Numbered from the stretch's first letter, positions 4,440 through 31,660 are shown. The stretch: 34,729 bases of DNA from Planctomycetaceae bacterium (GCA_020426425.1 JAGQQB010000001.1:1-34729); one strand, 5' to 3'. Notes: a model not told the origin generated them from the letters alone. Program-made: numbers and translations.

Positions 4440-7400
4440 ATGGTCGATTCCCCAAGTGCCCCCGCATCCCCTTCTCAACTGGAAGGCGGGACTTATGAGA
4501 TTCTGCGTCAACGCCTGGCAACGCACGCGAGCGATCTGCGCGATCGGCTGGACCAGCTCAACGAGCAACGTAAGTCCGTCTTCGGGTCCATCGATCTGCG
4601 TCTACTGACGACCGAACGAATTACCACCGATCACAACTGCGTTCCGCGCGACATGGTAGCGATCGGGCACCGCTTGCTGTTTGGATACAACGTTCACTTC
4701 GGTCTCAAGACCGAGCGGAACATCGAAGACGTTTTTGCCATCTATCGTTACGACGAGACCGAGCGCCAGTTGCACGTCGATGGTCTTGATCTGCTGCGTG
4801 ATGAACGATTCCTCAAAGACTTTCAGGAGGTCTATCGCTACTACAAGAACGCCACGTTCTCGAAGTTCTTCGTCACGCGCACGCACTTGTACATGGTGTT
4901 TCAGGTTGGTAAGGCGGCCACCGACATCAAGACGTTCAAGTGGGCGATCACGCCGGATGGTCTTGCCTATCTTGATAATCGCAGCGACCACGAGGTGCGG
5001 TACCCGCCACAGCATGAGTTCTCCTGGATTCGTACGACGCGCGACATGCATCGACCAGGGCTGCATCCGCACGTTTCGATTGAAGATCGCATCTTTGTCG
5101 AGACGGTCGGTGGCGATCTGACGATCAAAGTTGAGAACAACACGGAGAGCGGTGCCGGCATCTACTCCGAACCAGTCGACGATCCCGACCAAACGCTCGA
5201 TGATGCCGACATCAGCTATGCGGTCGTCGGCAACTGCATTTTGCTCAAAGTCCGCCCGTATCAGGAGCAGGCGAATCGGTTCATCGTCTACAACCAGAAG
5301 ATCGCTCAGGCGCGACGCATTGATGCGTTGCGCGATGCCTGCGTCCTGTTGCCGGATGATCACGGACTGATCTTCTCCAACGGGTACTACCTGCAGACCG
5401 GTGAACACAAGATGTTCGAAAGCGACATGCGCGGATTGCTATTCGAGCGGCGCATCGTTTCTCCCAACGGCGAGGACACGCTGTTCGTCTTTTACCAGCC
5501 TGAGACGGGCGTGTACGTGCTGCTCGGTTACAACGTCATTCGGCAGCAGGTGGAAACCCCCATCGTCTGTCACGGTTTCACGATGTTTCATGGCGGCGAG
5601 ATGATCCTGATCAAGTCGCCGGATCAGCCACAGAAGCATCATGCGATTCAGTTGTGGCAGACGCCTTATGTTGGCGCCGACTATGTCCCCGAGCAAACGA
5701 CTGATTCGTATCTGTACAAGATCGGTAACCGGGACATCGTGCGGGGAATGTCTGAATGCCACGAACTGCTAAGTCTCATTGATCAGGATGACAGCTACTC
5801 CGGCCTGTACATCGACCTTGTGCGTCAGTCGACGGACATTCTCGACAGCTTCTTCTGGATTCACGAAGAAACAGCGGGCAATCTTGGTGTTGCGCTGACC
5901 GAAGTTCGGGCAGCCGCCAAGGCGGCGGTGGATGAATTTGAAAAGGTAACGCGTGTCCGCCGCAACACAGCGGAACAGACGAGCAAGGTCAGCACTGCGA
6001 CCCGGGAAACCCTCAACGCCGTAGGGCGGCGGCGGTTCGATCGCGTTGAGGAGTTCGTCCAGTCGCTGGCGAATCTCCGCAAACTGCGCGGGGAGGTGAT
6101 CGCATTGCGTGACCTGCGCTACGTGGACGAGGAACTCATTGCCGGACTGGAACAGCAGATTTCCGCATCGTCCGATCAGCTTTCACATCGGTGCGTCGAG
6201 TTCTTGCTGCAGGACGATGCGCTCCAGCCCTACGAACAACGAATCGATGAACAACAGACGCAAATTGGCAAACTCCAAAAGGTCGCCGAAGCACGCGTAC
6301 TGGACGAACAGATTTCCGCCTCGGGTCATGAGCTGGAATTGCTGATCGAGATAGTCTCGAACCTAAAGATCGACGACGCGACGCAGCGCACGCGAATCAT
6401 CGACAATATCTCTGCCATCTTCAGTCGTGTGAATACCGCACGGGCAAGCCTGAAGCGGCGCCGCAGCGAACTGGCGAGCACGGAAGGGGCGGCGGAATTT
6501 TCCAGTCAGCTCAAGTTGCTCAGCCAGTCTGTCGTCAGTTCACTCGATGTCTGTGACACGCCCGAAAAATGCGAGGAGTACCTCACGCGATTGATGGTGC
6601 AGATTGAGGAACTCGAAGGCAAGTTCGCCGAGTTTGATGACTTCCTGCTGCAACTCGTCGAGAAACGGGAAGACGTTTCCGGCGCCTTTGAATCACGCCG
6701 CATGCAACTGGTTGAGCAGCGGAATCGTCGCGCGAACTCGTTGGCGCAGGCAGCTGATCGAATTCTCAAAGGGATTCGCTCGCGTGTCTCTGCGCTGGAG
6801 TCAATCCAGGAGATCCACGGCTACTTCGCCGCTGACCTGATGGTCGACAAGGTGCGCGATCTTATTGGCCAGCTCACCGAACTGGATGACTCGGTCAAAG
6901 CCGAGGACATTCAGTCGCGACTGAAGACGATTCGCGAAGATGCGGTTCGGCAACTCAAGGATCGTCAGGAACTGTTCGAAGAGGGCGCGAGCATCCTGCG
7001 ATTCGGACAGCATCGTTTCTCAGTGAACACGCAGTTGCTCGATCTGACGACCGTGTTGCGAGACGATCGATTGCATCTGCATTTGACCGGCACCGAGTTC
7101 TACGAACCGCTCGACAAGACCGAGTTAAATGAGACCCGACCGGTCTGGGGCATGGAGGTTTGCAGTGAGAATGCGGACGTTTATCGGGCCGAGTATCTCG
7201 CCTATCGCATGTTTCGCGAACTGGGGAACGCAATCGATCTGGCTGAGTCGAACGTGTTGGCAGCAGTCCAGCAGTTCATGGCCCCGCGATACGTGGAAGG
7301 CTACACCAAAGGAGTGCATGATCATGATGCCGCCCTCCTGATTCGCGCCCTGTGTGAGTCCGATCAGCACGCTGGGCTACTACGTTATTCACCCCAGGCG

Positions 7401-9815
7401 CGTGCGCTTGCGAGTTACTGTTGGCGGCAACTGTTCCCAAAGGCGGAACAACAGTTGATGGAGGCCGCGCTGCGAGGTATGGGGCATGTTGCCCGACTGT
7501 TCCCACAGACGCAAGGTCGCGATGAATTGTTACGGCGTCTGCGACGCCTGCTGCAACAGGCGCTCGCCCCCATCGACTCGGAGCTGGAGGTTTCGGCCCC
7601 GCTGATTGATGAAGCGGCACAATACCTGTTCGCGGAATTCACCGGTGGTGATCTCGAACAACGCGGTGACGCGTTCGCCGTCAGCCAGACTGCCGCAGAT
7701 CTGGTGCATGCGTTTCAGGAATATCTGCACACGCACAATGCGGAAGATCGATTTCAGCAATCAGTGAAAGCCCTGGCGGACGATCCACTCGCCGCATGGA
7801 AACTCGCCCAGGCGTGGCTCGATGCGTTCCAGCCTGTGCTCCCTGCAGCGACTCGCGCCGGACTGCACCAGGGATACATCGCGGAAGCCGGTTTGCTCTG
7901 CCTGGAACGAACGCTCGATGAACGTCGGATTCTCTCCGCGACAACGCATCACCAGCTTTCAGGGCTCATCGGATCACACGGCGTGATCGGCGAAGGGGGG
8001 CGGTATGAGTTCGACCTGCATCGCTTCGTCAATCGTCTGCGTCGGTTCGAATCTGAAACACTGCCCGCCTTCGAGCGCTACCATCAACTCAAAGGAGAGT
8101 TGGTTGACCGCGCCCGAGCCGCGATGAAGCTGTCCGAGTTCCAACCAAGAGTGCTTTCTTCATTCGTGCGGAATCGCCTGATTGACGAAGTCTACCTGCC
8201 GCTGATTGGAGACAATCTCGCCAAGCAGATTGGCACAGCGGGCGACGCGAAGCGAACCGATCGACAGGGACTACTCCTGCTCATCTCCCCACCGGGTTAC
8301 GGCAAGACGACACTGATGGAGTACATCGCGAATCGGCTCGGGATTATCTTCGTGAAAGTGAACGGCCCGGCGCTGGGGCATCAGGTAACGTCACTTGACC
8401 CCGCTGCCGCCCCGAACGCAGGAGCACGGGAAGAGATCGAGAAGCTCAACCTCGCGCTGGAAATGGGCGACAACGTCATGCTGTATCTGGACGACATTCA
8501 GCACTGTCATCCGGAGTTCCTGCAGAAGTTCATTTCGCTATGCGATGCCCAGCGGAAGATTGAAGGGGTGTGGAAGGGGCAAACCCGCACTTACGACTTC
8601 CGCGGCAAGAAAGTCGCCGTGGTTATGGCGGGCAATCCTTACACAGAGAGCGGCGAGAAGTTCCAGATTCCCGACATGCTTGCCAACCGCGCAGATATCT
8701 ACAACCTGGGCGAGATCATTGGGGAGACGCGCGAAGCGTTCGAGATGAGTTATCTGGAGAACGCTCTGACCTCGAATCCCATCCTGGCAAAATTGGCGGC
8801 CCGGTCACAACAGGATGTCTATGCGGTGATCAAACTCGCGGAGCAGGAGCGCCGCCGCGAATCGGCGGGACCGCTGAACATGCAAGGGATCGATTTCGAG
8901 GGAAGCTACTCGATGGAGGAACTGGGTGAGTTTGTCGCCACCATGACCCGCCTGATGCGTGTGCGCGATGTGGTCCTGCAGGTGAATCGCGAATACATTG
9001 CCTCCGCCGCGCAGCACGACGACTACCGAACCGAACCCCCATTCCTGCTGCAGGGCTCATACCGCAATATGAACCGCATCGGCGAGAAGGTCCTTCCGGT
9101 GATGAATGCGACGGAACTTGAAACGCTGATTGGCAGCAGCTACCAGAACGATGCCCAGACGCTGACCTCCGGTACCGAAGCGAATCTACTCAAGTTCAAG
9201 GAACTGCTCGGTACATTGACTGCCGACGAACAGACCCGCTGGGACCAGATTCGCCGGACATACCAGCAAAACGTCAAACTGCGTGGACTCAGTGCCGATG
9301 ACCATGTCGGCCAGGTGATTGCGACGCTCATGACTTTTTCTGATGGTCTGAACTCCATTCGCGAAGCGCTGCAATCGGGTGTGCAACGACTCTCTGCAGA
9401 TCGTAGTTCGGCGCAGGCGCAGGCGATTCAGTCGCAGTTAGCGGGAATGACCGAGCAACTGACGCAGGGACTCGATCGACTGACAGAGGCGGCGCGGCAG
9501 TCTGCTGAAGCGGCGATGCACAGACCATCGCGGGCCGGTTTGCCAAGTCCGCCGACCAACGATGCCGAGACCAGCGTCGATGCCGCCGGCCGATTGACGA
9601 TCGTGAACCGCATTCCGCGCACGGTCCTGAATGTGATGGAAACACAATTCGACCTGATGCAGAACTGGCTCCGGCCACTCAGTGAGATGACCACACGCCA
9701 GACCGCAGACCTTGAAAGCCTGCGTCCCATGGTCGAAGAGTGCCTGCAACACTACCGCGTGTTGTTGCGGAAGTTGGAGGAGGCGCACGAACGAGAATCT
9801 TCGGAAGATGAATGA
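4440..9815 (+). CDS. giant (1,791 aa) AAA+ ATPase of the MoxR/dynein-like clade with beta-rich N-domain and long coiled-coil region; function unknown
   Basis: Single uninterrupted ORF. Walker A is LLLISPPGYGKTTL (GYGKT at 8295-8309, Lys about residue 1289). Walker B is VMLYLDD (DD at 8490-8495). VVMAGNPYTESGEKFQIPDMLANRADIY resembles the MoxR/AAA_5 pattern (xxATxNP....G...LP.A.L.RF). Residues 1 to about 440 are strand-rich, and about 440-1260 and 1480-1791 are heptad-like helical. Confidence 0.9.
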   Translation: MVDSPSAPASPSQLEGGTYEILRQRLATHASDLRDRLDQLNEQRKSVFGSIDLRLLTTERITTDHNCVPRDMVAIGHRLLFGYNVHFGLKTERNIEDVFAIYRYDETERQLHVDGLDLLRDERFLKDFQEVYRYYKNATFSKFFVTRTHLYMVFQVGKAATDIKTFKWAITPDGLAYLDNRSDHEVRYPPQHEFSWIRTTRDMHRPGLHPHVSIEDRIFVETVGGDLTIKVENNTESGAGIYSEPVDDPDQTLDDADISYAVVGNCILLKVRPYQEQANRFIVYNQKIAQARRIDALRDACVLLPDDHGLIFSNGYYLQTGEHKMFESDMRGLLFERRIVSPNGEDTLFVFYQPETGVYVLLGYNVIRQQVETPIVCHGFTMFHGGEMILIKSPDQPQKHHAIQLWQTPYVGADYVPEQTTDSYLYKIGNRDIVRGMSECHELLSLIDQDDSYSGLYIDLVRQSTDILDSFFWIHEETAGNLGVALTEVRAAAKAAVDEFEKVTRVRRNTAEQTSKVSTATRETLNAVGRRRFDRVEEFVQSLANLRKLRGEVIALRDLRYVDEELIAGLEQQISASSDQLSHRCVEFLLQDDALQPYEQRIDEQQTQIGKLQKVAEARVLDEQISASGHELELLIEIVSNLKIDDATQRTRIIDNISAIFSRVNTARASLKRRRSELASTEGAAEFSSQLKLLSQSVVSSLDVCDTPEKCEEYLTRLMVQIEELEGKFAEFDDFLLQLVEKREDVSGAFESRRMQLVEQRNRRANSLAQAADRILKGIRSRVSALESIQEIHGYFAADLMVDKVRDLIGQLTELDDSVKAEDIQSRLKTIREDAVRQLKDRQELFEEGASILRFGQHRFSVNTQLLDLTTVLRDDRLHLHLTGTEFYEPLDKTELNETRPVWGMEVCSENADVYRAEYLAYRMFRELGNAIDLAESNVLAAVQQFMAPRYVEGYTKGVHDHDAALLIRALCESDQHAGLLRYSPQARALASYCWRQLFPKAEQQLMEAALRGMGHVARLFPQTQGRDELLRRLRRLLQQALAPIDSELEVSAPLIDEAAQYLFAEFTGGDLEQRGDAFAVSQTAADLVHAFQEYLHTHNAEDRFQQSVKALADDPLAAWKLAQAWLDAFQPVLPAATRAGLHQGYIAEAGLLCLERTLDERRILSATTHHQLSGLIGSHGVIGEGGRYEFDLHRFVNRLRRFESETLPAFERYHQLKGELVDRARAAMKLSEFQPRVLSSFVRNRLIDEVYLPLIGDNLAKQIGTAGDAKRTDRQGLLLLISPPGYGKTTLMEYIANRLGIIFVKVNGPALGHQVTSLDPAAAPNAGAREEIEKLNLALEMGDNVMLYLDDIQHCHPEFLQKFISLCDAQRKIEGVWKGQTRTYDFRGKKVAVVMAGNPYTESGEKFQIPDMLANRADIYNLGEIIGETREAFEMSYLENALTSNPILAKLAARSQQDVYAVIKLAEQERRRESAGPLNMQGIDFEGSYSMEELGEFVATMTRLMRVRDVVLQVNREYIASAAQHDDYRTEPPFLLQGSYRNMNRIGEKVLPVMNATELETLIGSSYQNDAQTLTSGTEANLLKFKELLGTLTADEQTRWDQIRRTYQQNVKLRGLSADDHVGQVIATLMTFSDGLNSIREALQSGVQRLSADRSSAQAQAIQSQLAGMTEQLTQGLDRLTEAARQSAEAAMHRPSRAGLPSPPTNDAETSVDAAGRLTIVNRIPRTVLNVMETQFDLMQNWLRPLSEMTTRQTADLESLRPMVEECLQHYRVLLRKLEEAHERESSEDE

Positions 9816-13366: not shown

Positions 13367-16321
13367 CTACCGCCGCACGAACAGCCAGTAGATCACTCCC
13401 AGCAAGAGGAGATTGACCCCGATCAGAATCCACAGGCGACGGTTCAACCAGGGTTGCTCCGCAGGCACAACTCCGCCAGGGACAAGATTGGGGATTTGTT
13501 GGCGGGGGCGTTTCGGTGTCAGTTTTGCCAGCAGCGGGCTGTTGAGGAACTCGGTGTGCGACACCATATTGTCGCCATCGACATCGGAACTGAGGAGAGC
13601 TTCCTCAATCTTGGCGGCAAACGCTTGCGCTTTGGCCCACTCCTCAGATTGCGGATCGGCACTCGCCGCCGTCCGACGACGGGTCAGTTCCTCTGAGCTG
13701 AGCCGCTGGTCATTGTTCTCATCGAAGTATTCAAAGAGGCGGTCCGGTGGTAGTTCGTTGATCTTCGTCTTGAATCGCCGTTCGGCAAAAGAGAGTTCGC
13801 CATCGTGATTTGTGTCCCATTGCCGGAAAGCCCACAACCGGTATCCATGGGCCAAGAGCGGTTCGTATTCGTTCGCAACCCCCCCGGCAATGAACTCGGC
13901 GGCACTCAGACGCCCATCGATGCTGCTGTCGACCGGGTCGCTCCAGTCATCCACAGGATTCGTCAATGGGCATCCGCAAAACTCCCGAAAGCTCAACTTG
14001 CCATCGCCATCGTCATCGAAGGCAGGGATCAACCGATCTGCGTAACGTCGAAACCAGTCGGGAGGATCGTGTGTGAGTTCACTGAGACTCACTTGAGCAT
14101 CGAGATCAGTGTCCAGCTGCAGAAACGTACGCAGTGGATCCGACCAGAACACACTCCCTTGCAGCAGTTCCGGCAAAGTGAGGACTTGATCGCCATTGAC
14201 ATCGATCCGTTCGCACCAGGCGTGCAACTTCTCACCTGGAATCCCGCCCTTCTTTGCAGCGGTTGCATACGACAACCCGGCACTGCCAGCTTCCAAGCCA
14301 TTGAAGTAGTTCCGAACCGAAAACCGCAGACCCACGGGAGAACGCAGCGATGGTCCTTTCAATCCGGCTCGCAGGCCATAGAGCACCTCGAGACCATTTC
14401 GCAGTTCGTCCACGGTGACCGCCTCGTCGGAATTGATGTCGAGTTGTCCGAGATCCAACCTTGGGGGGACCGCGCTCATCTCTTCCGGGACGGGATACTC
14501 GCCCTGGTACTTCCATTCATCGGGCGACCACTGGGAGTCGTGGTTGGTGTCCAGTGGGCGGAGCAACTTGACCCACTGCTCGAGCAATTCCGGAATGCGG
14601 TCGGCGACTGGATCCGGGAATCGACCTCGCAATCGTTCATTGTTGTTGCGTGGTAAGGACAGGAACTCCTCAAAGTTCAAGCCGGCACTTTGGTCGAAAT
14701 CGAGGACCGTGAGTTGCTGCCGCAGTACGTCCGGACGCTCATCCGTCTGAGCGACAATCAACTCCGCTTCGCTGACTTCGCCATCCATGTTGCGATCTGC
14801 GTCCCGGAACTGATTCCAGAGAACCCGACCATGCTGCCGCCACAACTGGACCGTATCTTGAAGGGCCACGGCGGGAATGAGTTCATCTGCCGCAAGTACC
14901 TCGTCGTGGTTCACGTCCACTTCCCCAAACAACGGGCGGAACCAGGAAAGCATTGGCACCTGGGGATCGGGACCAGGGAGTCCGAAGGCCTCGTCAAACG
15001 TCACGTGACCATCGTCGTTCAGATCGAGTGAGGTGGCGAGTGCTGCGGGCTGAACTTCCACCCGGCGCACTTTGAACGGCAGTTCCGCCTGAGCGAGTGA
15101 CTCGGGTTCGTCATCCGTTTGCAGTGCATCGAACATCCAGCGCGCCTGGGCCATTACCAGTTCGACTTCGGCGGCGACTGCACCATCGGGAATGGACTGG
15201 ACCAGGAACTCAGGCCAGGTCAGCTTCAGATCATTGTCTTCGTCTGAGTACGCACGAAACCAGTCACCCAGCGTGAGTCCCCAGGCTGAGCCCAAATACT
15301 CCGTCAACGAGAGTTGGCCGTCGTGATTGCGGTCGGCGGCGTGAAAGTAGAAAGCGAAGTTGCGTTGTTCCCATTTGGGTGCCTTTTGCCGGACTTCCTC
15401 GGCGGACAACAGCCCATCACCCGCCTGGCCATTCACGCCGACATCCCACTTCGCAAAGTCGCTCACCAGATCTTGCCGTAAGATCGCGTTGCTGGCGGCT
15501 TCGGCGAACGAGAGTTGCCCATCCTCATCCTTGTCCGCCCGGCCAAACAGCGCCGCTCCTTTCTCCGGTCCCCCCCAGAACTCGGGCACAAACTCTTCAC
15601 GCGAGAGCAACCGATTCTGGTCCACGTCCCACTTCAGCCATTTCTTCCAGTTGAACGCTTCGCCGCCATTCCGCAGATTCGCTTCACCCGCGCGCAGTCC
15701 GTAGATCGCGAGCAGCCGCTGTTCGACTTCGAGGCTCGTCACCGTTTGATCGGCGTTGCGATCCCAACCCGCGATCGGCTGCCAGGGAATCCAGTTTGGC
15801 AGTCCATCCGGGGGGGCGAGCGACGCCCATTCCGCAGGATCCAGATGCCCACTCTGATCAATGTCGGCGGCGGCGATCATGTCGACGGACTGCTTGATGA
15901 TCGCGTTCGCTCTGCGCTGCATTGGATCGGGAATCGACGCACGGTCTTTCGCACGCTCAAAGGCACGGTGCAGCCGCCACTCGTTGAAGGTGAGATCGCC
16001 CGATCGATCCGCATCACATATCCGCATTCGCTGTGTCTGTTCAGCGATGGATTCCGGAGGGATCTCAACCAGCAGTTCACTTAGTTCGACCCCTCCACTC
16101 TCGTTGCGATCCAGTTCACGAAAGACCTTCCGTAGCGACTGTGTTTTCTTCTGCTCGGCGGAGAGAATTCTGATCCGGTGTGGCAGGGGAACCGGAGGCG
16201 GGGAGTGTGTGTTGACTACCGGAATGATTGTCGAGAGGACGCGAGAATCGTCCGCGTGAAGCTCGTGCGCTGCGGAGTTTGCGAACGCAAGCAGCAGCAT
16301 GCCAGTCAGCAACAGACGCAT
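13367..16321 (-). CDS. secreted poly-EF-hand calcium-binding protein (about 22 EF-hand-type loops) with C-terminal TM anchor
   Basis: I count 21 canonical 12-residue D-x-[DN]-x-[DNS]-x6-E loops plus one irregular loop, for example DADRSGDLTFNE, DKDEDGQLSFAE, DRNHDGQLSLTE, DDDGDGKLSFRE and DTNHDGELSFAE. The signal peptide MRLLLTGMLLLAFANSAAHE starts at internal ATG 16321 (longest ORF starts 16483). The C-terminal helix is LWILIGVNLLLLGVIYWLFVRR. Confidence 0.85.
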   Translation of the reverse strand: MRLLLTGMLLLAFANSAAHELHADDSRVLSTIIPVVNTHSPPPVPLPHRIRILSAEQKKTQSLRKVFRELDRNESGGVELSELLVEIPPESIAEQTQRMRICDADRSGDLTFNEWRLHRAFERAKDRASIPDPMQRRANAIIKQSVDMIAAADIDQSGHLDPAEWASLAPPDGLPNWIPWQPIAGWDRNADQTVTSLEVEQRLLAIYGLRAGEANLRNGGEAFNWKKWLKWDVDQNRLLSREEFVPEFWGGPEKGAALFGRADKDEDGQLSFAEAASNAILRQDLVSDFAKWDVGVNGQAGDGLLSAEEVRQKAPKWEQRNFAFYFHAADRNHDGQLSLTEYLGSAWGLTLGDWFRAYSDEDNDLKLTWPEFLVQSIPDGAVAAEVELVMAQARWMFDALQTDDEPESLAQAELPFKVRRVEVQPAALATSLDLNDDGHVTFDEAFGLPGPDPQVPMLSWFRPLFGEVDVNHDEVLAADELIPAVALQDTVQLWRQHGRVLWNQFRDADRNMDGEVSEAELIVAQTDERPDVLRQQLTVLDFDQSAGLNFEEFLSLPRNNNERLRGRFPDPVADRIPELLEQWVKLLRPLDTNHDSQWSPDEWKYQGEYPVPEEMSAVPPRLDLGQLDINSDEAVTVDELRNGLEVLYGLRAGLKGPSLRSPVGLRFSVRNYFNGLEAGSAGLSYATAAKKGGIPGEKLHAWCERIDVNGDQVLTLPELLQGSVFWSDPLRTFLQLDTDLDAQVSLSELTHDPPDWFRRYADRLIPAFDDDGDGKLSFREFCGCPLTNPVDDWSDPVDSSIDGRLSAAEFIAGGVANEYEPLLAHGYRLWAFRQWDTNHDGELSFAERRFKTKINELPPDRLFEYFDENNDQRLSSEELTRRRTAASADPQSEEWAKAQAFAAKIEEALLSSDVDGDNMVSHTEFLNSPLLAKLTPKRPRQQIPNLVPGGVVPAEQPWLNRRLWILIGVNLLLLGVIYWLFVRR

Positions 16322-16587
16322 CTTCGGGGCCCTTTGGGTTTCGTCGAGTTCGAGAAGTTGCCGTCCACCCTGGCTCGCGTCGGCGGAATCTGCCGCAGTC
16401 GACCGAGTTGAGTCGATCGACAACAGCCGCGATTCTGACGGTTTGCCTACGCAACTTGAAGCTTTTTTCCAGCAGCCGAACATTTTTTTATGACGGAGTC
16501 CGGATTGTGACGATGAGACAGAAGAGGTGAACTGCCGTGACCATGTGGCTGCGCGCCGATTGCTGACTCAGCACTGTCGAGACTTCG

Positions 16588-18099
16588 ATGAACGAGCAAG
16601 GCTTAGAATTTCTGCCAGACGACGTGAAGGAGACACCCGAGCTCCTATCCGTATCTCCCGGTGCCCGATTGGCGTTACGGCTTTCCATGTCTCCGTGGTT
16701 ATGGGGCGCGGTGTTGACGTGTGGCGTCTATGGTGCGATCAACGTGTTGCCGGTCGGACGAGATCTAGCACAGCGGTACTTCTGCAACCATCCGCTCGAA
16801 TACGCGTTGGCCGCACTCTTCTGCGTCGGGCTCGCCATCATTCTTGCCAAGACGCTGACCAATCGCTGGGAATGGTCTGCGTTTCGCAAGGCACGACAAC
16901 TTCCGATCGACTCGAACGAAGTCCCCTATGCGGAACGCCTCGATCTGTTGAAGAGTCACGCCAGCCAGTTCACCACAAATCTGCACGAAACATACTGGGG
17001 GCACCGACTGGGGCACTTGTGGTCGTTCCTCAGCGGCAAACCTCGTGCTGATGGAATCGCCGACCATCTGAACTACCTCTCGGAATCGTCGCTGGATCGG
17101 CTCCATGCCAGCTACAGTTTGATGAATACCATCATCTGGGCGATTCCCATTGTCGGGTTTCTCGGAACCGTGATGGGGATCACGCTGGCGATCGCCAATA
17201 TCACTCCCGACCAACTGGAAACGTCGATGGGCGCGGTCACCGGCGGACTGGCGGTCGCGTTCGACACGACCGCAGTCGCGTTGACCTGGTCGCTCGTCCT
17301 CGGCTTCGCTTCTCTGTTCGTCAAACGAACGGAAGAACAGTTGCTCGCCGAGATCGACGAACAAACCCGCGTCGAAGTGAATCGCTGCTTCCCGGCGGAA
17401 CAAGCCGAGAGCCCCCTGTTGTTGGCGCAGAGCGATGCCGCCCGGCGCGTCATTCAGGAAACCGACGAACTGGTACGCCAGCAACGCGATCTGTGGCAGA
17501 CCGCTGTCGATGCATTCCGTAGTGACTGGTTCGAGACACTGCAGCGGCAACAGGCAGAGTTGGGCACATCGTTGAGCAATGCGACCGCCAGTGCTGCCGG
17601 GAGTCATGCGCAACAACTGCGTGAATTCCGCGATGAATTCGTCACGGCGTATCAGGCGGTGTCGGCATCGCTCGGAGCCGAACTGCGACAACTCGAAACG
17701 GGACGCGCGCTGTTCTCTGATCGGTTGAGTGCGACACTGGAGACATTCGATGATCGCCTGCGATCGGGGCTCGAACAGCAACTGGAGCAACAGCGGCAAG
17801 CCAACGAACAGACGACGGAACAGGTGGTCGGGCAGTTGACGCGTCTGGAAGATGCGATCACGCAGTGGCAATCTCAGTTCGCCGAGCTCTCTGCCGCCAG
17901 TCGCGAACATGCTCAGGAGTTGCGATCTCAAACCGACCTCCTATCGCAACTGGTCGGTCAGAAGTCGGAGCTGGCCGAACTGCAGTTGCGACTGACAGAC
18001 AATCTTCAAGCGGTCCGGTCCGCCGAGACATTCGACGAAACGCTGCACAATCTGACTGCTGCGGTGCATCTGCTCACGGCGCGCGCCCGGGCGGCTTAG
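16588..18099 (+). CDS. MotA/TolQ/ExbB-family proton-channel protein with about 245-aa C-terminal coiled-coil tail
   Basis: Four predicted TM helices. The TM3-TM4 region (about 17149-17352) reads IWAIPIVGFLGTVMGITLAI...MGAVTGGLAVAFDTTAVALTWSLVLGF. This matches the family signature (P.vGLlGTV.GM ... GIa.AL.tTa.GL). Residues about 256-503 are continuous Q/E/R/L-rich helix. Confidence 0.85.
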   Translation: MNEQGLEFLPDDVKETPELLSVSPGARLALRLSMSPWLWGAVLTCGVYGAINVLPVGRDLAQRYFCNHPLEYALAALFCVGLAIILAKTLTNRWEWSAFRKARQLPIDSNEVPYAERLDLLKSHASQFTTNLHETYWGHRLGHLWSFLSGKPRADGIADHLNYLSESSLDRLHASYSLMNTIIWAIPIVGFLGTVMGITLAIANITPDQLETSMGAVTGGLAVAFDTTAVALTWSLVLGFASLFVKRTEEQLLAEIDEQTRVEVNRCFPAEQAESPLLLAQSDAARRVIQETDELVRQQRDLWQTAVDAFRSDWFETLQRQQAELGTSLSNATASAAGSHAQQLREFRDEFVTAYQAVSASLGAELRQLETGRALFSDRLSATLETFDDRLRSGLEQQLEQQRQANEQTTEQVVGQLTRLEDAITQWQSQFAELSAASREHAQELRSQTDLLSQLVGQKSELAELQLRLTDNLQAVRSAETFDETLHNLTAAVHLLTARARAA

Positions 18100-18141
18100 T
18101 CGCCTTTCGCGTTGTCCGCACGTTCCTGATGGTTCCACTCC

Positions 18142-20409
18142 TTGAAACGCCGCCGTTCAGAACTGTCATTCACGCTGTTCCCCTTTCTGGCCGTGCTGAT
18201 GTGTACGATGGGGGCGCTGGTGCTATTGTTGCTCGTCACCACGCGTCAAATGCGGGAACGAGCCGTCGAGCAGCAGCAACAGCAGGCCCGCGCGGTCGCA
18301 GGCGCAGAGTCGTATGTACCCATCGTCGTTCCGCATGTCGCCGGGCTCCCGGCAGCTGACGAACCCATCCCACTTGAGGGCGTATCACCACCGGAGTTGA
18401 GCCCAATTGAGGCCGCCGTCGAAACCGCATCCCCACTTCCGGTGACTGCTGATCATCCACTCCTTCCCGAACTCGTTGATGATCCTCCCGCGACGGGTCC
18501 CTCCGCCGCAGAATTAGCCCGTCAGGCTTATGAACGCCAACGATCCCAGCGTGCAGCGGAACTGACTCAGCTGCGTGAAGAATGGGAACAGCAGGTGCGG
18601 GAACTGATGCGGCAACGCGATCGCTCTGCCCGCGATCTTGCCCGCTCCAAGGAACTGGTTGGGACAGAGCAGCAACGCGTCGAGCAACTCCGTCGCGATC
18701 AGCAGATGATCGCCACCAAACTGCAACAACTCGTGAAAGAGCGACAAGGCCAACAGCAACTCCAATCAGCGCTACTGCAGGAACAACAACGCGCGGAGCA
18801 GGCTTTGGAGCAGATCAAGTCGCTGGAGAAGCACGCACAATCCAGAACGCTGGAGCCGAAGACGCGCCTGTCGGTCATGTCCCATGGCGGTCAATCGGGC
18901 ACGCAACGGCGGGCGATCATGATCGAATGCAGAGCAAACGAGATTCGCTTCGCCAGTGAGGGGGTCTCGCTCACAAGCCAGCAACTCTCCGGATTCACCC
19001 CGGACTACAATCCGCTGCAACTGGGCGCCGAAGTGCTGCGCCGCTACTGGGCGCAGCGTGATTCGGATCGCGGTGACGAAGCAGATCCATATGTGCTGCT
19101 CGTCGTCCGCCCCGATGGAACCGAAGCGTTTTATGTCGCCCAAATGCTGCTTGCCAAGGTCAAGGTCGAAGGGGGCTACGAACTGGTCCTGCAGGACGAA
19201 CAGATTGTTTGGCCCGAGGCCGATCCTGAGGCGGCTGCGATTTGTCGACAGGCGGTCGAACAGATGCTCGCGGAGCGGGAACGGATCGTGGCTAAGGTTC
19301 GCAATGGACGACTGCCCGTCCATGGTGAACTGGATTTCGTTGGTCCCGATGGTGGATTTCGATTGCAGGAGGTGGAGCGGCTGCGGAACGCCGACGATCC
19401 GTACGCGATCGCGAATCCGACCTGGGCCAACCCACATCGACGCTCACTCGATGTCGACTGGCGCAGCACGCAGGGACGCCGCGTGTTTACTCCGCGCTCG
19501 GAACCAGAATGGTCCGCCAGTCGGGGACCGTCGCTGGATCACCCAGGATCGTCGGACGCAGCGATCCAGGGCGGTGGTAAAGCGGGGAGCGGTCCCGGTT
19601 CGCTGGGAAGCGAATCCATCGAGTCGACCGATGGGAATCCATTCGCACGTCCCCTCCAGCGCGGCTCGGTAGCGGGTGGCTCGTCACAAGGTCCATCGGG
19701 AAGTGGTCACGAATCTGGCACAGGGACTGAGGCTGGGGGAGGAACGATCGTGCCTCCCGATCCTGATGCTCAATTCGGGAACGCTCACCAGACGGGAACC
19801 GCAGCACTCGATCCAACTCGTCTGCGGTCGAATGACAATTCTCGCACGAATCCAGGAACCGAGTCGTCGACCGCATCCGGCGAACCAGGGAGGCCGGGCC
19901 AACGAGTCACTCCGGGGATGGCCCCGCCGCATCCTGGGGCGGCCGGAAGCCGTGCACCGGGATCTGGAAGCATGTCGGGAGAATCGTCGCCAATCCCCCT
20001 GCCTCAGTCGACGCCATCCAATGTGCCACCAGGACAGGCAGCTGGCGATCCGAATGAATGGCTGAATGATGGGGGTCGCAATCGTAGATGGGGGGCACCG
20101 CCGCGATCCAATGCCATTGGCTTGGAACGAGACGTCGTCCTGGACGTCTGGACTGATGCGGTGGCACTCGAAGGAGCGGAACAGCGAACCCAACTTGAGG
20201 CGGCGATCGCGCGACAGGACCTGCAGCGACTGGTCGCGGCACTCATCGAAGAACAGATTGCCGACTGGGGACCGGCACCGGCTTCATTCATGTGGCGACC
20301 GACGCTCCGGGTGCGCATCCATCCTGGCGGTCATGTGCATAGTGGTCGCATCGGCGAAGTGGCACGCCATTGGGGCTTTCGCATGCAGACCGAGACGTTG
20401 TTGGAGTAA
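18142..20409 (+). CDS. single-pass membrane protein (755 aa) with ExbD/TolR-like N-terminal anchor (Asp replaced by Ala), Pro-rich spacer, Q-rich coiled coil, two alpha/beta modules and a Gly/Ser/Pro-rich disordered tract
   Basis: TTG start at 18142; no in-frame ATG precedes the TM helix. The N-terminus MKRRRSELSFTLFPFLAVLMCTMGALVLLLLV aligns without gaps to the N-terminus of the next gene. The coiled coil spans about residues 120-235. The low-complexity tract lies at about 19500-20100. The gene starts 42 nt after the upstream stop. Confidence 0.8.
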   Translation: MKRRRSELSFTLFPFLAVLMCTMGALVLLLLVTTRQMRERAVEQQQQQARAVAGAESYVPIVVPHVAGLPAADEPIPLEGVSPPELSPIEAAVETASPLPVTADHPLLPELVDDPPATGPSAAELARQAYERQRSQRAAELTQLREEWEQQVRELMRQRDRSARDLARSKELVGTEQQRVEQLRRDQQMIATKLQQLVKERQGQQQLQSALLQEQQRAEQALEQIKSLEKHAQSRTLEPKTRLSVMSHGGQSGTQRRAIMIECRANEIRFASEGVSLTSQQLSGFTPDYNPLQLGAEVLRRYWAQRDSDRGDEADPYVLLVVRPDGTEAFYVAQMLLAKVKVEGGYELVLQDEQIVWPEADPEAAAICRQAVEQMLAERERIVAKVRNGRLPVHGELDFVGPDGGFRLQEVERLRNADDPYAIANPTWANPHRRSLDVDWRSTQGRRVFTPRSEPEWSASRGPSLDHPGSSDAAIQGGGKAGSGPGSLGSESIESTDGNPFARPLQRGSVAGGSSQGPSGSGHESGTGTEAGGGTIVPPDPDAQFGNAHQTGTAALDPTRLRSNDNSRTNPGTESSTASGEPGRPGQRVTPGMAPPHPGAAGSRAPGSGSMSGESSPIPLPQSTPSNVPPGQAAGDPNEWLNDGGRNRRWGAPPRSNAIGLERDVVLDVWTDAVALEGAEQRTQLEAAIARQDLQRLVAALIEEQIADWGPAPASFMWRPTLRVRIHPGGHVHSGRIGEVARHWGFRMQTETLLE

Positions 20410-20412
20410 CCG

Positions 20413-21597
20413 ATGGCCCGCAGACACAGCTCCGATGAGATCGCATTCAGTTCCGATTCGTTCCTCGACATTGTCGCGAACATGGTCGGCATTCTGATCA
20501 TTCTGATCGTGATCGCTGGCGTTCGCGTGAGCCGCGCGCCGGTCGTACTGCCGGTGATCGAGAACACGTACGATCTCGCCGCACTGCCGCATCCCGACTT
20601 CAGCGACCCGCCCATCGTGCAACAGATTATCGTCGCCGATCCACAGGTTGTCGGCGAACTGACCGATCCGGAACCACCAGTTGAGACACCGTTCGTCAGT
20701 ACGCCACCACCCAAACCGGCTCCCGAACCAGAACCGATTCCGGTCTTTCCGCCATTGCCGGAGCTGCATCCTCCAGCGGATCTCGTCATGACCGCCAAGG
20801 ATCTGGGCGCCGAACTCGAACGCCTCCAGGCCGCCCAATCAGGAGAGGAGCAGCAGTTTCAGGAATTGCAAACGTCTCAGCGTGCCTTGGTTGAAGCGCT
20901 GCAACAGCAGCGAAGCGAGGTGGCCATGTTGACACAGCAAGTCGACTCCATGTCCCAGACCAGTCAGGAGGTCACAACCGAATTGCGTTCGCGTCAACTG
21001 GCGGTGTCGCAGGCGCAGCAACGATTGGCACAAGTCCAGTCAGCCGAATCGCCAACGAAAGAACTGAAACACCAGATGACGCCGGTCTCCAAGGTGGTTA
21101 CCGGGAAAGAGGTCTTCTTTCGGTTGGCAGAGAATCGCGTTTCGTACCTGCCAATGATGGAACTCGCGGAACTGCAAGCGCAGGATTTGCAGCGTCGCCG
21201 CACGGCGCTGCTGGTTGGGCAGTTGTATCAGGGGAAGGTTGGACCGGCGCAAGGTTACGAACTGGCGTACATTGCCCAGTTGGAGGAACGCTCGTTCGCC
21301 GAGGAACTCGGCGGAGGTCGCCGCGTGGGCATCAGCTGGATGCTGCGCCCGCATGTGACATTGCACACGGAGTCGGTCGACGAAGCACTCCGTCCGGGCT
21401 CTCGTTTCATGCAGGCGTTGGCTGATGCTGGTCCCACAGCAACCGTCACCTTCTGGGTTTATCCGGACAGCTTCGAGATTCATCGCCGACTCAAACAGTA
21501 TGCCGAAGAGACCGGTTACTGGATTGCCACCCGACCGATGCCGTTCGACGTACCGATCGCCGGCACACCGGACGGATCGCGCTCGCGAGCGCAGTAG
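20413..21597 (+). CDS. single-pass membrane protein (394 aa) with ExbD/TolR-like anchor retaining the conserved Asp, Pro-rich spacer, coiled coil and C-terminal alpha/beta module
   Basis: ATG at 20413 is 3 nt after the upstream TAA (20407-20409). The N-terminus DEIAFSSDSFLDIVANMVGILIILIVIAG resembles the ExbD/TolR motif (..TPLIDVvfvLLiFF), with Asp19 encoded at 20467-20469. PPPKPAPEPEPIP is the spacer and the coiled coil spans about residues 130-215. Confidence 0.85.
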   Translation: MARRHSSDEIAFSSDSFLDIVANMVGILIILIVIAGVRVSRAPVVLPVIENTYDLAALPHPDFSDPPIVQQIIVADPQVVGELTDPEPPVETPFVSTPPPKPAPEPEPIPVFPPLPELHPPADLVMTAKDLGAELERLQAAQSGEEQQFQELQTSQRALVEALQQQRSEVAMLTQQVDSMSQTSQEVTTELRSRQLAVSQAQQRLAQVQSAESPTKELKHQMTPVSKVVTGKEVFFRLAENRVSYLPMMELAELQAQDLQRRRTALLVGQLYQGKVGPAQGYELAYIAQLEERSFAEELGGGRRVGISWMLRPHVTLHTESVDEALRPGSRFMQALADAGPTATVTFWVYPDSFEIHRRLKQYAEETGYWIATRPMPFDVPIAGTPDGSRSRAQ

Positions 21598-21735
21598 CCC
21601 CAACTCCGTTTGTGAGTGGTCCCCGATCGCCAGCAGTCGATAGGATGCGTCAACCGCGTGACAAGTCCCTGCATCGGCTGGTTGCGTTCAGCAATCTTTC
21701 TCCTCTGCCCGTGGCCCGTCGGCCGGACCGAAACC

Positions 21736-29332: not shown

Positions 29333-29788
29333 CTATTTTGAGGACTCGTTCTTATGCGGTTCGTCAGCAGACGGTTCGTCCTGACCCGCCGCCCAGATCG
29401 CTCGAGCCAACATACCGCCGAACCAGGCCAGGGGCAGATAGATCAGCAAATCAAGTACCGCGAACCAGACAGGATGCGGTATCGTCACCAGATTGCCGAT
29501 GCCAGCGATCAGGAAGAGCGTGCCGACCGTCATTGCGCCACGCAGTGAATTCGACTTTGAGATCCATTGGCAAACGGCTGCGCCGGCGAACGCTCCATCA
29601 GCATGTGCCAGCAGGACCAGAATGAACGCTCCGGGAGGGAGCGACTCGATGAACTTGCTCAAGTCCTCTGGATGTGTCAGGTCAAGTCCCGCTGGGGGAG
29701 GATAAAGCGAAGACGAAATCGTCTCACCGATGGCGACAAAAACAGAGCCGACCACCAGTCCCAGCAACACGGCGAGTGCGAAACGCAT
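29333..29788 (-). CDS. small integral membrane protein (151 aa, about 4 TM helices)
   Basis: Hydrophobic helices: FALAVLLGLVVGSVFVAI, GAFILVLLAHADGAFAGAAV, AMTVGTLFLIAGIGNLV and VWFAVLDLLIYLPLAWFGGML. Its ATG overlaps the upstream stop (TAATG at 29786-29790). No family recognised. Confidence 0.7.
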   Translation of the reverse strand: MRFALAVLLGLVVGSVFVAIGETISSSLYPPPAGLDLTHPEDLSKFIESLPPGAFILVLLAHADGAFAGAAVCQWISKSNSLRGAMTVGTLFLIAGIGNLVTIPHPVWFAVLDLLIYLPLAWFGGMLARAIWAAGQDEPSADEPHKNESSK

Positions 29789-31530
29789 TAAGGTTGGTCC
29801 TGTTGACTTGGTGCTGACTGCGGTGAATCTCTAGTTTCGGGTGAGTCGTCCATGGCAGTGTTGTCCGCTGCCGCTCGCCCGCGCATCGCCTCCGCACGCT
29901 CCGCTTCCGGCAGCGTAATCAGTCCATCTGCATCCTGATCGATCGCTGCAAAATCTGCTTGCGAGCCAGGGAATTCCCGCCAGGAGACGTCGCCATCGAG
30001 GTTGCGGTCCATCCGGCGAAACCACAGCGGTCCTGATGCCTCTTCCCGTACGATTCCCTGTCGCGCGGCGGTGTTCATCGCGGTGTCGACGCGCACATCG
30101 ATTAGTTCCGGCTGACTAATGGTGATGCGAAACCGGCTCGCCAGTTCACTGCTCCCCAGCGCACCATCGCCATTGCGATCGTATTCGGTGAGTACATTGG
30201 TTGCGTCACGCAGTTCGCGCTCCGTCAGCCGATTGTCGGAGTTGGCGTCCAGTAGATTGAACAACACCTTGGCTTCGTTCGACAGGGTTGCCACGAGTCG
30301 GCTCTGTGCGGCGAGCCCATCCAGCGTGAAGTACAGATCGATTTCATCAGCGACCACCTGTTCGTTTCCATCAAGATCGACATCTTCGAATTGCGCTGGT
30401 GCCTGCAGGCCGGCGAACTCTCCTCGGTCCAGATAGCCGTTCTTGTCGGCATCTGAAGTCCGGAGGCGAATCTTGAACAGGCTCACCTGATCACGCAGAT
30501 CGCGGGCTTTGTTCCGGGCAACGTACTCCACCGGGACGCCCGCCAGGTCGAGGACCGGTCGGCCTCCTGACGAGATGACGGTAACAGTCTCTCCAGAACC
30601 AATGCGTCCCAGCGCGACTTGTGGCGGCGCAAGCGAGACCGACAGATTCAGTTGCGCGGGGGACTTCTCCAGATAACGCACCAGTTCCGCCGCGTTGAGC
30701 GATCCCTCCTTGTCCATATCGAAGGCGCGAAAGAATCGTTCGCTGATGCCGAGTTGCTCAGCATTGGTGAGAGGTTGGGCAGCTCCGTAGGTGGTCAAAA
30801 TGCGTTCCGCTGCACGCTCGCGCTCCGTCGTCGTGGTCGCGAGTACAAGTGGCAACTCCTGATCAGGATCGCGGGCATCTGCCATCTGTTGCGCCTGCAC
30901 TACCGAGAGCGGAAAGGGTTGCAACTCGGCGACGCTCAGGGCTTCGTCGTCATCAAAGTCCGATCGCTGCAACCGTCGCAATCCTTCGTCGAACTCCTCG
31001 GGCGAGATCGACTGATCGCCATTCGTGTCGAGTTCTTCATACAGTCGCACCGTCTGCGTTAGTCGCGGCACTTGGCGCTCCACAGTCAGGGGCGGTCCGA
31101 GTTGGACGTCGAGGCATCGCCGCAGTTCTTCCAGCGACAACAGATCGTCGGTCGGCTCGGTGTCATGCTCTTTCCAGTCAGTGCCGATCTTCTTTGCCGT
31201 CGCGATGAACCGACCTCCGAGTGGAATGGCAGCCGCTTCCGAGGAATCCAGCATTCCGTTGTGGTCCTGATCGAGTCGCTCGAAGGCCCCTTGCGCATAC
31301 CGCTGCCGCACTTGATCGAGCCCGAATGGACCAGCCTGAATTTGGACTTCCATCAGCACGGGCGATTTCGGACCCAGAAACACGAATCGATATGTCTGAG
31401 CGGCGCACTCGCGCATGTCCGCGACCAGCAGCAGGCAAAAACCGGCCAGAAACACCCTGATCCGGTGCTGGATGACCAAATCCCGTTGCGGTCGCCTGAT
31501 CGTAGTTGGCATTTGTGAACCTTCTGCCAT
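29788..31530 (-). CDS. secreted EF-hand repeat calcium-binding protein (about 9-11 loops)
   Basis: Loops include DQDHNGMLDSSE, DTNGDQSISPEE, DMDKEGSLNAAE, DADKNGYLDRGE, DANSDNRLTERE, DRNGDGALGSSE, DRNLDGDVSWRE and DQDADGLITLPE. The signal-anchor-like segment is IRVFLAGFCLLLVADMRECAAQ. Start chosen at ATG 31530 (alternatives 31512 and 31632). Confidence 0.8.
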   Translation of the reverse strand: MAEGSQMPTTIRRPQRDLVIQHRIRVFLAGFCLLLVADMRECAAQTYRFVFLGPKSPVLMEVQIQAGPFGLDQVRQRYAQGAFERLDQDHNGMLDSSEAAAIPLGGRFIATAKKIGTDWKEHDTEPTDDLLSLEELRRCLDVQLGPPLTVERQVPRLTQTVRLYEELDTNGDQSISPEEFDEGLRRLQRSDFDDDEALSVAELQPFPLSVVQAQQMADARDPDQELPLVLATTTTERERAAERILTTYGAAQPLTNAEQLGISERFFRAFDMDKEGSLNAAELVRYLEKSPAQLNLSVSLAPPQVALGRIGSGETVTVISSGGRPVLDLAGVPVEYVARNKARDLRDQVSLFKIRLRTSDADKNGYLDRGEFAGLQAPAQFEDVDLDGNEQVVADEIDLYFTLDGLAAQSRLVATLSNEAKVLFNLLDANSDNRLTERELRDATNVLTEYDRNGDGALGSSELASRFRITISQPELIDVRVDTAMNTAARQGIVREEASGPLWFRRMDRNLDGDVSWREFPGSQADFAAIDQDADGLITLPEAERAEAMRGRAAADNTAMDDSPETRDSPQSAPSQQDQP

Positions 31531-31660
31531 TAAGATTCCGCGCTGTATCCGTCCACAAGGCCGAACCGTTCTGCCGGGAACCGGCTCCGCCTGAGAGGTA
31601 GGAACCATCGGCGGGTTTCGAAGCCGATCCACCAGACACCTAGTCTACACCGCTGTTACG

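Follow-up and report, generated by a model that had tools for sequence, protein, structure and literature searches.

A conserved planctomycete gene trio as a candidate ion-driven envelope motor of the MotA/ExbB family

The stretch of DNA analysed here (the window), 34,729 nucleotides from a Planctomycetaceae bacterium (GCA_020426425.1 JAGQQB010000001.1:1-34729), carries three adjoining open reading frames (ORF1, ORF2 and ORF3), which we are somewhat inclined to read as a self-contained, Planctomycetota-specific envelope motor of the ion-driven 5:2 type, with a pentamer of ORF1 and an axle made of ORF2 and ORF3. Motors of this type drive flagella, TonB-dependent uptake, envelope maintenance by Tol-Pal, gliding, type IX secretion and Zorya defence, and each new variant has revealed a new conversion of membrane potential to work. 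The trio is not a member of ExbBD, TolQR, MotAB, GldLM, AglRQS or Zorya as these systems are defined, and we regard it as an uncharacterised variant of the MotA/ExbB 5:2 motors. It joins features that have so far been seen separately, namely a ZorA-style tail, long periplasmic axle subunits and two different axle proteins, one of which lacks the aspartate, and it has been kept in hundreds of species of planctomycetes, whose envelope and cell cycle are atypical.

All three genes lie on the plus strand. ORF1 (16588..18099) encodes a 503-aa A subunit of the MotA/ExbB/TolQ family with a long C-terminal tail; ORF2 (18142..20409, TTG start) encodes a bitopic partner of 755 aa that contains a coiled coil and two alpha/beta domains homologous to each other; ORF3 (20413..21597) encodes a second bitopic partner, of 394 aa, with a conserved aspartate in its transmembrane (TM) helix. 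The ORF calls agree with the original prediction, which had been made from the DNA sequence alone, on the common direction of the genes, the gaps of 42 nt and 3 nt and the sizes of ORF2 and ORF3. The three are real genes, as judged from the many full-length homologues of each (hundreds for ORF1 and for ORF3, 47 detected for ORF2). The public gene call of ORF1 begins at Met34 and yields 470 aa; the longer start is plausible because homologues reach ~490-497 aa with an N-terminal stretch that is poorly conserved.

The synteny expected among planctomycetes was found, since tblastn located the whole trio in 58 of 83 loci, mainly in the order ORF1-ORF2-ORF3. ORF2 and ORF3 adjoin in every locus that carries both, often with a 4-nt overlap of their frames. 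When one genome per species was scanned with ORF3 as marker, at least 495 species-representative genomes proved to encode an ORF3 relative, and an exhaustive profile search gave 836 clusters at 50% identity with E <= 1e-30. The best 80 loci of the species scan were inspected; all 80 are planctomycete, mostly labelled Planctomycetaceae, and the named genera among them are Gimesia, Planctomicrobium, Schlesneria, Thalassoglobus, Planctopirus and Planctomyces. When all ORFs of 85 loci were clustered, no recurrent neighbour emerged besides the trio itself. Promoter and terminator scans gave no difference from shuffled sequences. Long antisense 'shadow' ORFs lie over all three genes (16765-17931, 18772-19437 and 21040-21603, all on the minus strand, and others). 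Their counterparts recur in related loci, and we read them as by-products of G+C-rich coding sequence, not as genes.

Channel core and cytoplasmic tail of ORF1

The assignment of ORF1 to the MotA/ExbB/TolQ family, already proposed in the original prediction, is borne out at the sequence level. Residues 153-256, which span the last two TM helices, match Pfam PF01618 (MotA_ExbB) with 51.4 bits against a cut-off of 22.9, and this domain is present in all ORF1 homologues listed. Hydropathy analysis delineates four predicted TM segments (38-56, 73-91, 182-200 and 220-245), which form two hairpins separated by a loop of ~90 residues; such a MotA-type arrangement would leave the C-terminus in the cytoplasm. 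The TM1-TM2 hairpin (aa 38-91, 16699..16860, plus strand) contains a conserved RYFCxHPLEY motif, and Y48, R63, Y64, H68 and E71 are invariant. The TM3-TM4 channel core (aa 182-245, 17131..17322, plus strand; GFLGTVxGIT ... AFDTT) is the most conserved segment of the protein (conservation 0.83). It includes the invariant residues T194, D226 and T228, the two threonines being invariant in 35 sequences. T194 and T228 align to T148 and T181, the pore threonines of ExbB; the ExbB sequence used in this alignment is consistent with the match to the PDB. A profile search of the PDB with ORF1 placed first 8vvn, a 696-aa pentameric protein with a MotA/TolQ/ExbB domain that is presumably ZorA, although this top match is weak (E 3.4e-5, 26 bits), followed by ExbB (E 0.047) and TolQ (E 0.27). 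The PADLOC ZorA2 models match ORF1 weakly (43 bits, E 7.4e-12), and the NCBIfam ZorA models score 16-20 bits, below their cut-offs of 100-700.

Downstream of TM4, ORF1 continues for ~255 residues (aa 246-503, 17323..18096, plus strand), which are predicted to form an amphipathic helix on the basis of their periodicity and of a sub-threshold Apolipoprotein match. The long tail was anticipated by the original prediction, but its heptad-like character was not upheld: the hydrophobic periodicity peaks at 3.64-3.68 residues with negligible power at 3.50, so that the tail is hendecad-like (11-residue repeat) and not heptad-like. Such periodicity predicts a right-handed coiled coil. The tail of ZorA is a pentameric right-handed coiled coil (PMC11946911), and the suggested likeness to ZorA therefore finds support in this handedness as well as in the weak 8vvn and ZorA2 matches. 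The length that follows TM4 is almost fixed, with a median of 254 residues and an interquartile range of 254-256 among 121 family proteins of ~40% identity, of which a minority have a tail deletion of ~25-30 residues. Since this length is nearly invariant despite such sequence divergence, it suggests a molecular-ruler constraint on the tail. The last 60 residues (AETFExTLHSLSAAVHLLTAR) are far more conserved than the middle of the tail, and the conservation of the tip (aa 441-503, 17908-18096) amounts to 0.68.

Anatomy and anchors of ORF2 and ORF3

ORF2 and ORF3 have a common layout consisting of a basic N-terminus, one TM helix, a Pro-rich linker, a heptad coiled coil and one or two alpha/beta domains. 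This layout had been recognised in the original prediction and reappears both in AlphaFold2 monomer models built from family alignments and in the periodicity of the sequences. In the ORF3 model, the TM helix (aa 14-40, 20452..20532) is followed by a disordered Pro-rich linker (aa 41-120, 20533-20772), by one helix (aa 122-210, 20776..21042) and by the alpha/beta domain (aa 233-384, 21109..21564), which is modelled with a predicted local distance difference test score (pLDDT) >90 and precedes the conserved end RPLPxGVPIAGSPxGSxSxAQ. The ORF2 model opens with a helix (aa 13-55) that includes the TM anchor (aa 13-35, 18178..18246) and continues with a disordered Pro-rich linker (aa 58-119, 18313-18498), a second long helix (aa 122-236, 18505..18849) and alpha/beta domain 1 (aa 258-387, 18913..19302; beta-beta-beta-alpha-beta-alpha-beta-alpha, pLDDT ~90-98). 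Alpha/beta domain 2 (aa 659-752, 20116..20397) is reached only after a disordered Gly/Ser/Pro-rich linker of 215 residues (aa 420-634, 19399..20043; pLDDT <50), which is unalignable and differs in length and sequence among species. All these segments lie on the plus strand. The long periplasmic helix begins at residue 122 in both models and displays a strong 3.50-residue periodicity, well over shuffled controls (for ORF3, a power of 67 vs 16 +/- 4.6 in shuffles).

The N-terminal anchors are the parts that recall the B subunits of known motors. In the ORF3 anchor (SDSFLDIVANMVGILIILIV; TM helix SDSFLDIVANIVGILIILIV), D15, D19 and N23 are invariant across 56 sequences, and Asp19 belongs to an equally invariant FLD motif. 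The same F-[IL]-D-[IV] context is found in ExbD (PFIDVML) and TolR (PLLDVLL). The ORF2 anchor (LFPFLAVLMCTMGALVLLLLV; TM helix LFPFLAVLVCTMGAL) reads PFLAV, with Ala17 at the position of the ExbD/TolR aspartate. Alanine occupies this position in >90% of members, and the aspartate is retained in the ORF2 relatives P0259 (FPFIDVL) and L084 (LPFLDIL). The N-terminal TM helix with a conserved aspartate that marks B subunits is thus present in ORF3 only. The ORF2 anchor is nevertheless among the best-conserved parts of its protein, with F13, F15, V18, L19, C21, G24, L26 and L30 invariant. By hhalign, the two anchors align with 69% probability (E 4.5e-5), the two ORF2 domains with 93% (E 2.6e-7), and the ORF3 domain weakly with ORF2 domain 2 (29%). 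Because the anchors align and the ORF3 domain has this weak counterpart in ORF2, the two proteins are probably distant paralogues. They differ in pace, since mean column identity is 24% for ORF2 and 40% for ORF3, ORF2 evolving much faster.

The spacer that separates the TM motif from the first globular domain co-varies in length between ORF2 and ORF3 of the same genome, with r=0.87 over 43 loci and r=0.66 over the 31 loci left after de-duplication and removal of two extremes, both values being calculated regardless of phylogeny. We see in this co-variation an independent hint at co-assembly of the two proteins. Their extreme C-termini are conserved as well: the terminal glutamine of ORF3 (21565-21594) is invariant in 56 sequences, and most relatives of ORF2 (20380-20406) finish in E-x-x-L-[E/D/N]. 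These ends hint at docking or recognition motifs.

The original prediction described both partners as ExbD/TolR-like, which appears to hold for the N-terminal TM anchors and for nothing beyond them: the periplasmic domains are not detectably related and the Pfam threshold for ExbD is never reached. In Pfam scans, PF02472 (ExbD) was unmatched by ORF2, ORF3 and 56 + 26 (=82) family members, the latter scanned at E <= 10. The only ExbD match, sub-threshold, came from the ORF2 relative P0259 (aa 6-34 on profile positions 4-32; E 0.075, 13.5 bits, cut-off 25.4) in scans of 'mini' constructs, which join TM helix and domain and were designed to avoid coiled-coil noise. This match covers the TM region alone, is in register and is the only Pfam match of P0259. 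Against the PDB, full-length ORF2 and ORF3 profiles gave coiled-coil noise only, and TM-plus-domain and domain-only profiles were unmatched, ExbD and TolR included. Direct comparison by hhalign with ExbD/TolR gave at most 2% probability in the expected register and placed ORF2 domain 1 on ExbD 59-129 with 1-2%, the ExbD/TolR alignment being of three sequences only and thus of low power. No ExbD/TolR homologue was detected in ~1.2 Mb of fetched loci.

Other family identities fared no better. Searches of Pfam, NCBIfam and PADLOC returned no OmpA-family or ZorB matches for the trio, nor did TonB_C or TolA matches appear, and both anchors are devoid of the histidine of the TonB/TolA SHLS motif. 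Membership in GldLM, MotAB or TonB/TolA was rejected, and GldL/GldM matches are lacking. The periplasmic domains of ORF2 and ORF3 are unmatched in Pfam and the PDB. Foldseek searches with the full-length models returned nothing at E <= 1e-3, and ExbD/TolR were missing from the 50 best matches. For both proteins, the best matches were folds with an RNase-H-like motif (NTPDase/ASKHA lobes, ribosomal protein S11, YeaZ, integrase core and RuvC) and were not significant, a resemblance that is suggestive only. A vWA identity of the heads was considered and is unsupported by Pfam or Foldseek. As modelled, the heads are best described as alpha/beta domains without an assigned fold.

A candidate motor and its alternatives

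In the machine that we on balance prefer, ORF1 would be the A subunit, pentameric by analogy with every solved relative, and its tails of ~255 residues would join in a right-handed coiled coil that extends ~35 nm into the cytoplasm, where the conserved tip would probably dock an unlinked partner. ORF2 and ORF3 would provide the B-type axle, their N-terminal helices being inserted in the pore of the pentamer, with a protonatable Asp19 from ORF3 and an alanine at this place in the ORF2 of this clade. Both would exit the membrane via their flexible Pro-rich linkers, pair over 13-17 nm as a parallel heptad coiled coil and turn their alpha/beta heads towards a target in the peptidoglycan or outer membrane. 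Ions passing the ORF1/ORF3 interface would make the pentamer rotate relative to the axle, and the membrane potential would thereby be coupled, on both sides of the membrane, to a force or a signal, in an accessory envelope function rather than in phage defence. The choice of ORF2 and ORF3 as axle follows from the fact that no other B-type gene recurs in the module (85 loci), and from the invariant Asp19 of the ORF3 FLD motif, the alignment of the two anchors and the PFIDV/PFLDI sequences of the Asp-bearing ORF2 relatives; the basic N-termini of both proteins agree with it. Their pairing is proposed because the genes adjoin in each locus with both, the heptad helices both start at residue 122 and the spacers co-vary.

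A more elaborate version, which we put forward only tentatively, is a heteromeric 5:1:1 rotary motor with a single Asp-bearing axle helix that acts on both sides of the membrane, inwards through a length-calibrated pentameric coil of ~35 nm and outwards through a heterodimeric coiled-coil stalk, with novel alpha/beta heads, that would span the unusually wide planctomycete periplasm. If true, it would define a new architectural class of MotA/ExbB motors and would serve a planctomycete-specific envelope process. The trio also provides a natural setting in which to ask whether one protonatable site is enough to drive a 5:2 motor.

Several observations weigh against the proposed motor. In ~30% of loci, ORF1 does not adjoin ORF2-ORF3, and in three complete Planctomicrobium genomes the 7 kb on either side of the pair contain no ORF1 relative. 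The aspartate is absent from ORF2 in >90% of members, and we know of no characterised precedent for a single-Asp axle. The anchors resemble ExbD/TolR over a short stretch and with weak statistics, and no relation of the periplasmic domains to ExbD, TolR, MotB, OmpA or vWA was detected. We infer the stoichiometry and the pore insertion, the helical fold of the ORF1 tail is predicted, and the spacer correlation ignores phylogeny. Finally, the orthologues in Planctopirus limnophila are non-essential and so supply no phenotype pointing to a role.

The missing aspartate of ORF2 leads to an alternative, unlikely in our view, in which ORF1 and ORF3 conduct as a 5:2 complex with an ORF3 homodimer, while ORF2 forms a separate non-conducting or regulatory complex or a scaffold bound to ORF3 via the periplasmic coiled coil. 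To our knowledge, all solved 5:2 motors use homodimeric B subunits, and the alanine found in >90% of ORF2 members, the much faster evolution of ORF2 (24% vs 40% mean column identity) and the far lower counts given to the ORF2 orthologue than to both its neighbours in a P. limnophila conservation table all fit such a division of labour. It accounts less well for the strong conservation of the ORF2 anchor, which is unexpected in a mere membrane tether, or for the tight coupling of the two genes, the co-variation of their spacers and their shared helix start. Both partners might even stand outside the ORF1 complex, or be independent of it, as bitopic periplasmic proteins of the TolA/TonB or PilN/PilO kind, ORF1 being then paired with an ExbD/TolR encoded elsewhere. 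PilN/PilO and GspL/M likewise have a TM helix followed by a coiled coil and an alpha/beta head, neither ORF2 nor ORF3 has a significant ExbD/TolR match, and in some genomes the pair is not linked to ORF1. However, the ~1.2 Mb of fetched loci are free of ExbD/TolR homologues, and neither anchor has the SHLS-motif histidine of TonB/TolA. The invariant mid-TM aspartate of ORF3 in its F-[IL]-D-[IV] context is a hallmark of pore-inserted B subunits, and the Pfam ExbD match of one ORF2 relative (E 0.075) falls exactly on the TM helix, so that we hold such a scaffold to be rather improbable.

The least likely rival, to which we give very little credence, is a Zorya-like sensor of phage attack or envelope damage, in which ORF1 would act as ZorA, its tail would recruit effectors encoded elsewhere, and ORF2 and ORF3 would replace ZorB as periplasmic sensors. 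Like the A subunit of ZorA-ZorB, the 5:2 anti-phage motor of Zorya (PMC11946911), ORF1 combines a MotA/ExbB-type channel part with a long C-terminal helical tail of seemingly constrained length and right-handed periodicity. The tip of the ORF1 tail is conserved, the nearest PDB profile match is 8vvn (E 3.4e-5), PADLOC ZorA2 is matched weakly (E 7.4e-12), and the genes are non-essential in culture. In contrast, ORF1 has four predicted TM segments where ZorA has three, and a tail of ~255 aa where ZorA has roughly 500 (PMC11946911), and its NCBIfam ZorA scores of 16-20 bits stay far from cut-offs of 100-700. The peptidoglycan-binding domain of ZorB is lacking, as are the ZorC/D/E effectors, no Zor partner being present in the window or the 85 loci. 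The trio occurs phylum-wide in at least 495 species with a divergence that tracks relatedness and with metabolic flanks, unlike sporadic systems of patchy defence islands, and no viral copies were found. It is this phylum-wide inheritance, together with the metabolic flanks and the missing Zor partners, that places the Zorya-like reading last.

The motor that we favour can also be set against the other known members of the family. ORF1 shares with ExbB and TolQ its Pfam family and the pore threonine pair, and the ORF3 anchor shares F-[IL]-D-[IV] with ExbD and TolR; unlike either ExbB-ExbD or TolQ-TolR, the trio comes without TonB/TolA, TolB or Pal, and its B partners are 3-5 times larger, contain coiled coils and have periplasmic domains that are not detectably ExbD-like. 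In the AglR-AglQ-AglS system of Myxococcus gliding, one operon unites one A-type gene with two different B-type genes, as in the trio, but AglQ and AglS are small, TolR-sized proteins that both carry the aspartate, AglR has no long tail, and the trio has no linked Glt-type partners. GldL-GldM and PorL-PorM resemble the trio in having an axle subunit that is long and spans the periplasm, and an A subunit with a cytoplasmic extension. The trio differs by the absence of GldL/GldM family matches and of type IX secretion genes, and GldM forms a homodimer, is built from helical and Ig-like domains and lacks the aspartate.

Published surveys provide partial parallels. TolQ-like genes without tolR have been noted beside heterologous pairs of vWA proteins, for which an Asp-bearing, ExbD-like transpore helix is predicted in the pentamer (PMC12204202 section 8). 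This arrangement, which is predicted only, resembles the trio in its TolQ/ExbB-type gene, in the absence of tolR/exbD, in its two different large periplasmic proteins and in the N-terminal ExbD-like helix proposed for insertion in the pentamer (PMC12204202). It differs in that ORF2 and ORF3 have coiled coils and no vWA domain, that a single partner carries the aspartate and that the A subunit has a long tail, and in taxon, since it occurs mainly in Proteobacteria and Verrucomicrobia and the trio in Planctomycetota. A survey of MotAB relatives reports that additional domains at the N- or C-terminus are frequent in non-flagellar 'GIT' A subunits and that the periplasmic domains of some partners are very large; the trio family is not described in it (PMC12505986).

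In Planctopirus limnophila, synteny with the Planctopirus hydrillae locus designates Plim_1832-1834 as orthologues, the gene order shared by the two being the trio, glycerate kinase, a hypothetical gene, PurL and prephenate dehydrogenase; this orthology is deduced from gene order. All three genes were scored non-essential in a study by transposon-directed insertion site sequencing (PMC10632474, supplementary file 3), from which the trio appears to be dispensable in laboratory culture. As genetic tools are available for P. limnophila and Plim_1832-1834 are dispensable there, the question of a motor with one protonatable site can be tested directly. Our literature search found no paper on the trio, its family or Plim_1832-1834, in line with the original view that it fits no described system.

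Locus variants and genomic surroundings

The composition of the module varies among relatives. Two more distant trios (L085 and L086) have ORF1 relatives of 446-480 aa that keep the same tail-tip motif. In five loci, four of them labelled Schlesneria, the order is ORF2-ORF3-ORF1' (L014, 8935-10209; L044, L046, L072 and L076), where ORF1' is a protein of 424 aa with a tail of ~170 aa and with AFNTT instead of AFDTT in TM4, the tail-tip motif being kept. The Planctomicrobium pairs without ORF1 within 7 kb are those of L009 (SH664), L031 (SH661) and L051 (SH668), the first of which is flanked by TilS and an FHA-cyclase protein. In the distant relative L084 (7001-10844), ORF2 is divided between a first ORF of 424 aa and a second, extremely Gly-rich one of 479 aa; the ORF3 relative as called is without a TM helix, and no ORF1 adjoins.

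In the window, the trio is flanked by genes for a Ser/Thr kinase, a giant DUF3686-AAA protein, a cytochrome c protein, an EF-hand protein, MazG, SecDF, TGT and AlaRS; the flanks differ among loci and consist of ordinary metabolic genes. OmpA, TonB, Tol-Pal, flagellar and Zor effector genes are absent nearby, as had been noted in the original prediction. PADLOC detected no defence system among the neighbours except for a generic kinase similarity, and no viral contig with a trio relative was found. A defence-island origin was rejected for these reasons and in view of the metabolic flanks. Given its wide spread among species, its variable metabolic flanks and the lack of defence links and of viral copies, the trio most readily fits a chromosomally inherited, non-mobile accessory function.

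Some neighbours in the window deserve mention on their own. The Ser/Thr protein kinase (1207-4068, plus strand, 953 aa) matches the PADLOC PD-T4-6 kinase models (E 6e-84), which probably reflects generic kinase-domain similarity rather than a defence gene. The giant protein (4440-9815, plus strand, 1791 aa) comprises DUF3686 ('ATPase involved in DNA repair'), DUF7902 and an AAA domain, and has no PADLOC match. Two proteins with many EF-hand repeats are encoded on the minus strand at 13367-16483 (1038 aa) and 29788-31632 (614 aa), neither of which is kept beside the trio elsewhere; the gene of the larger one is divergent from ORF1, and its product has a hydrophobic C-terminal segment.

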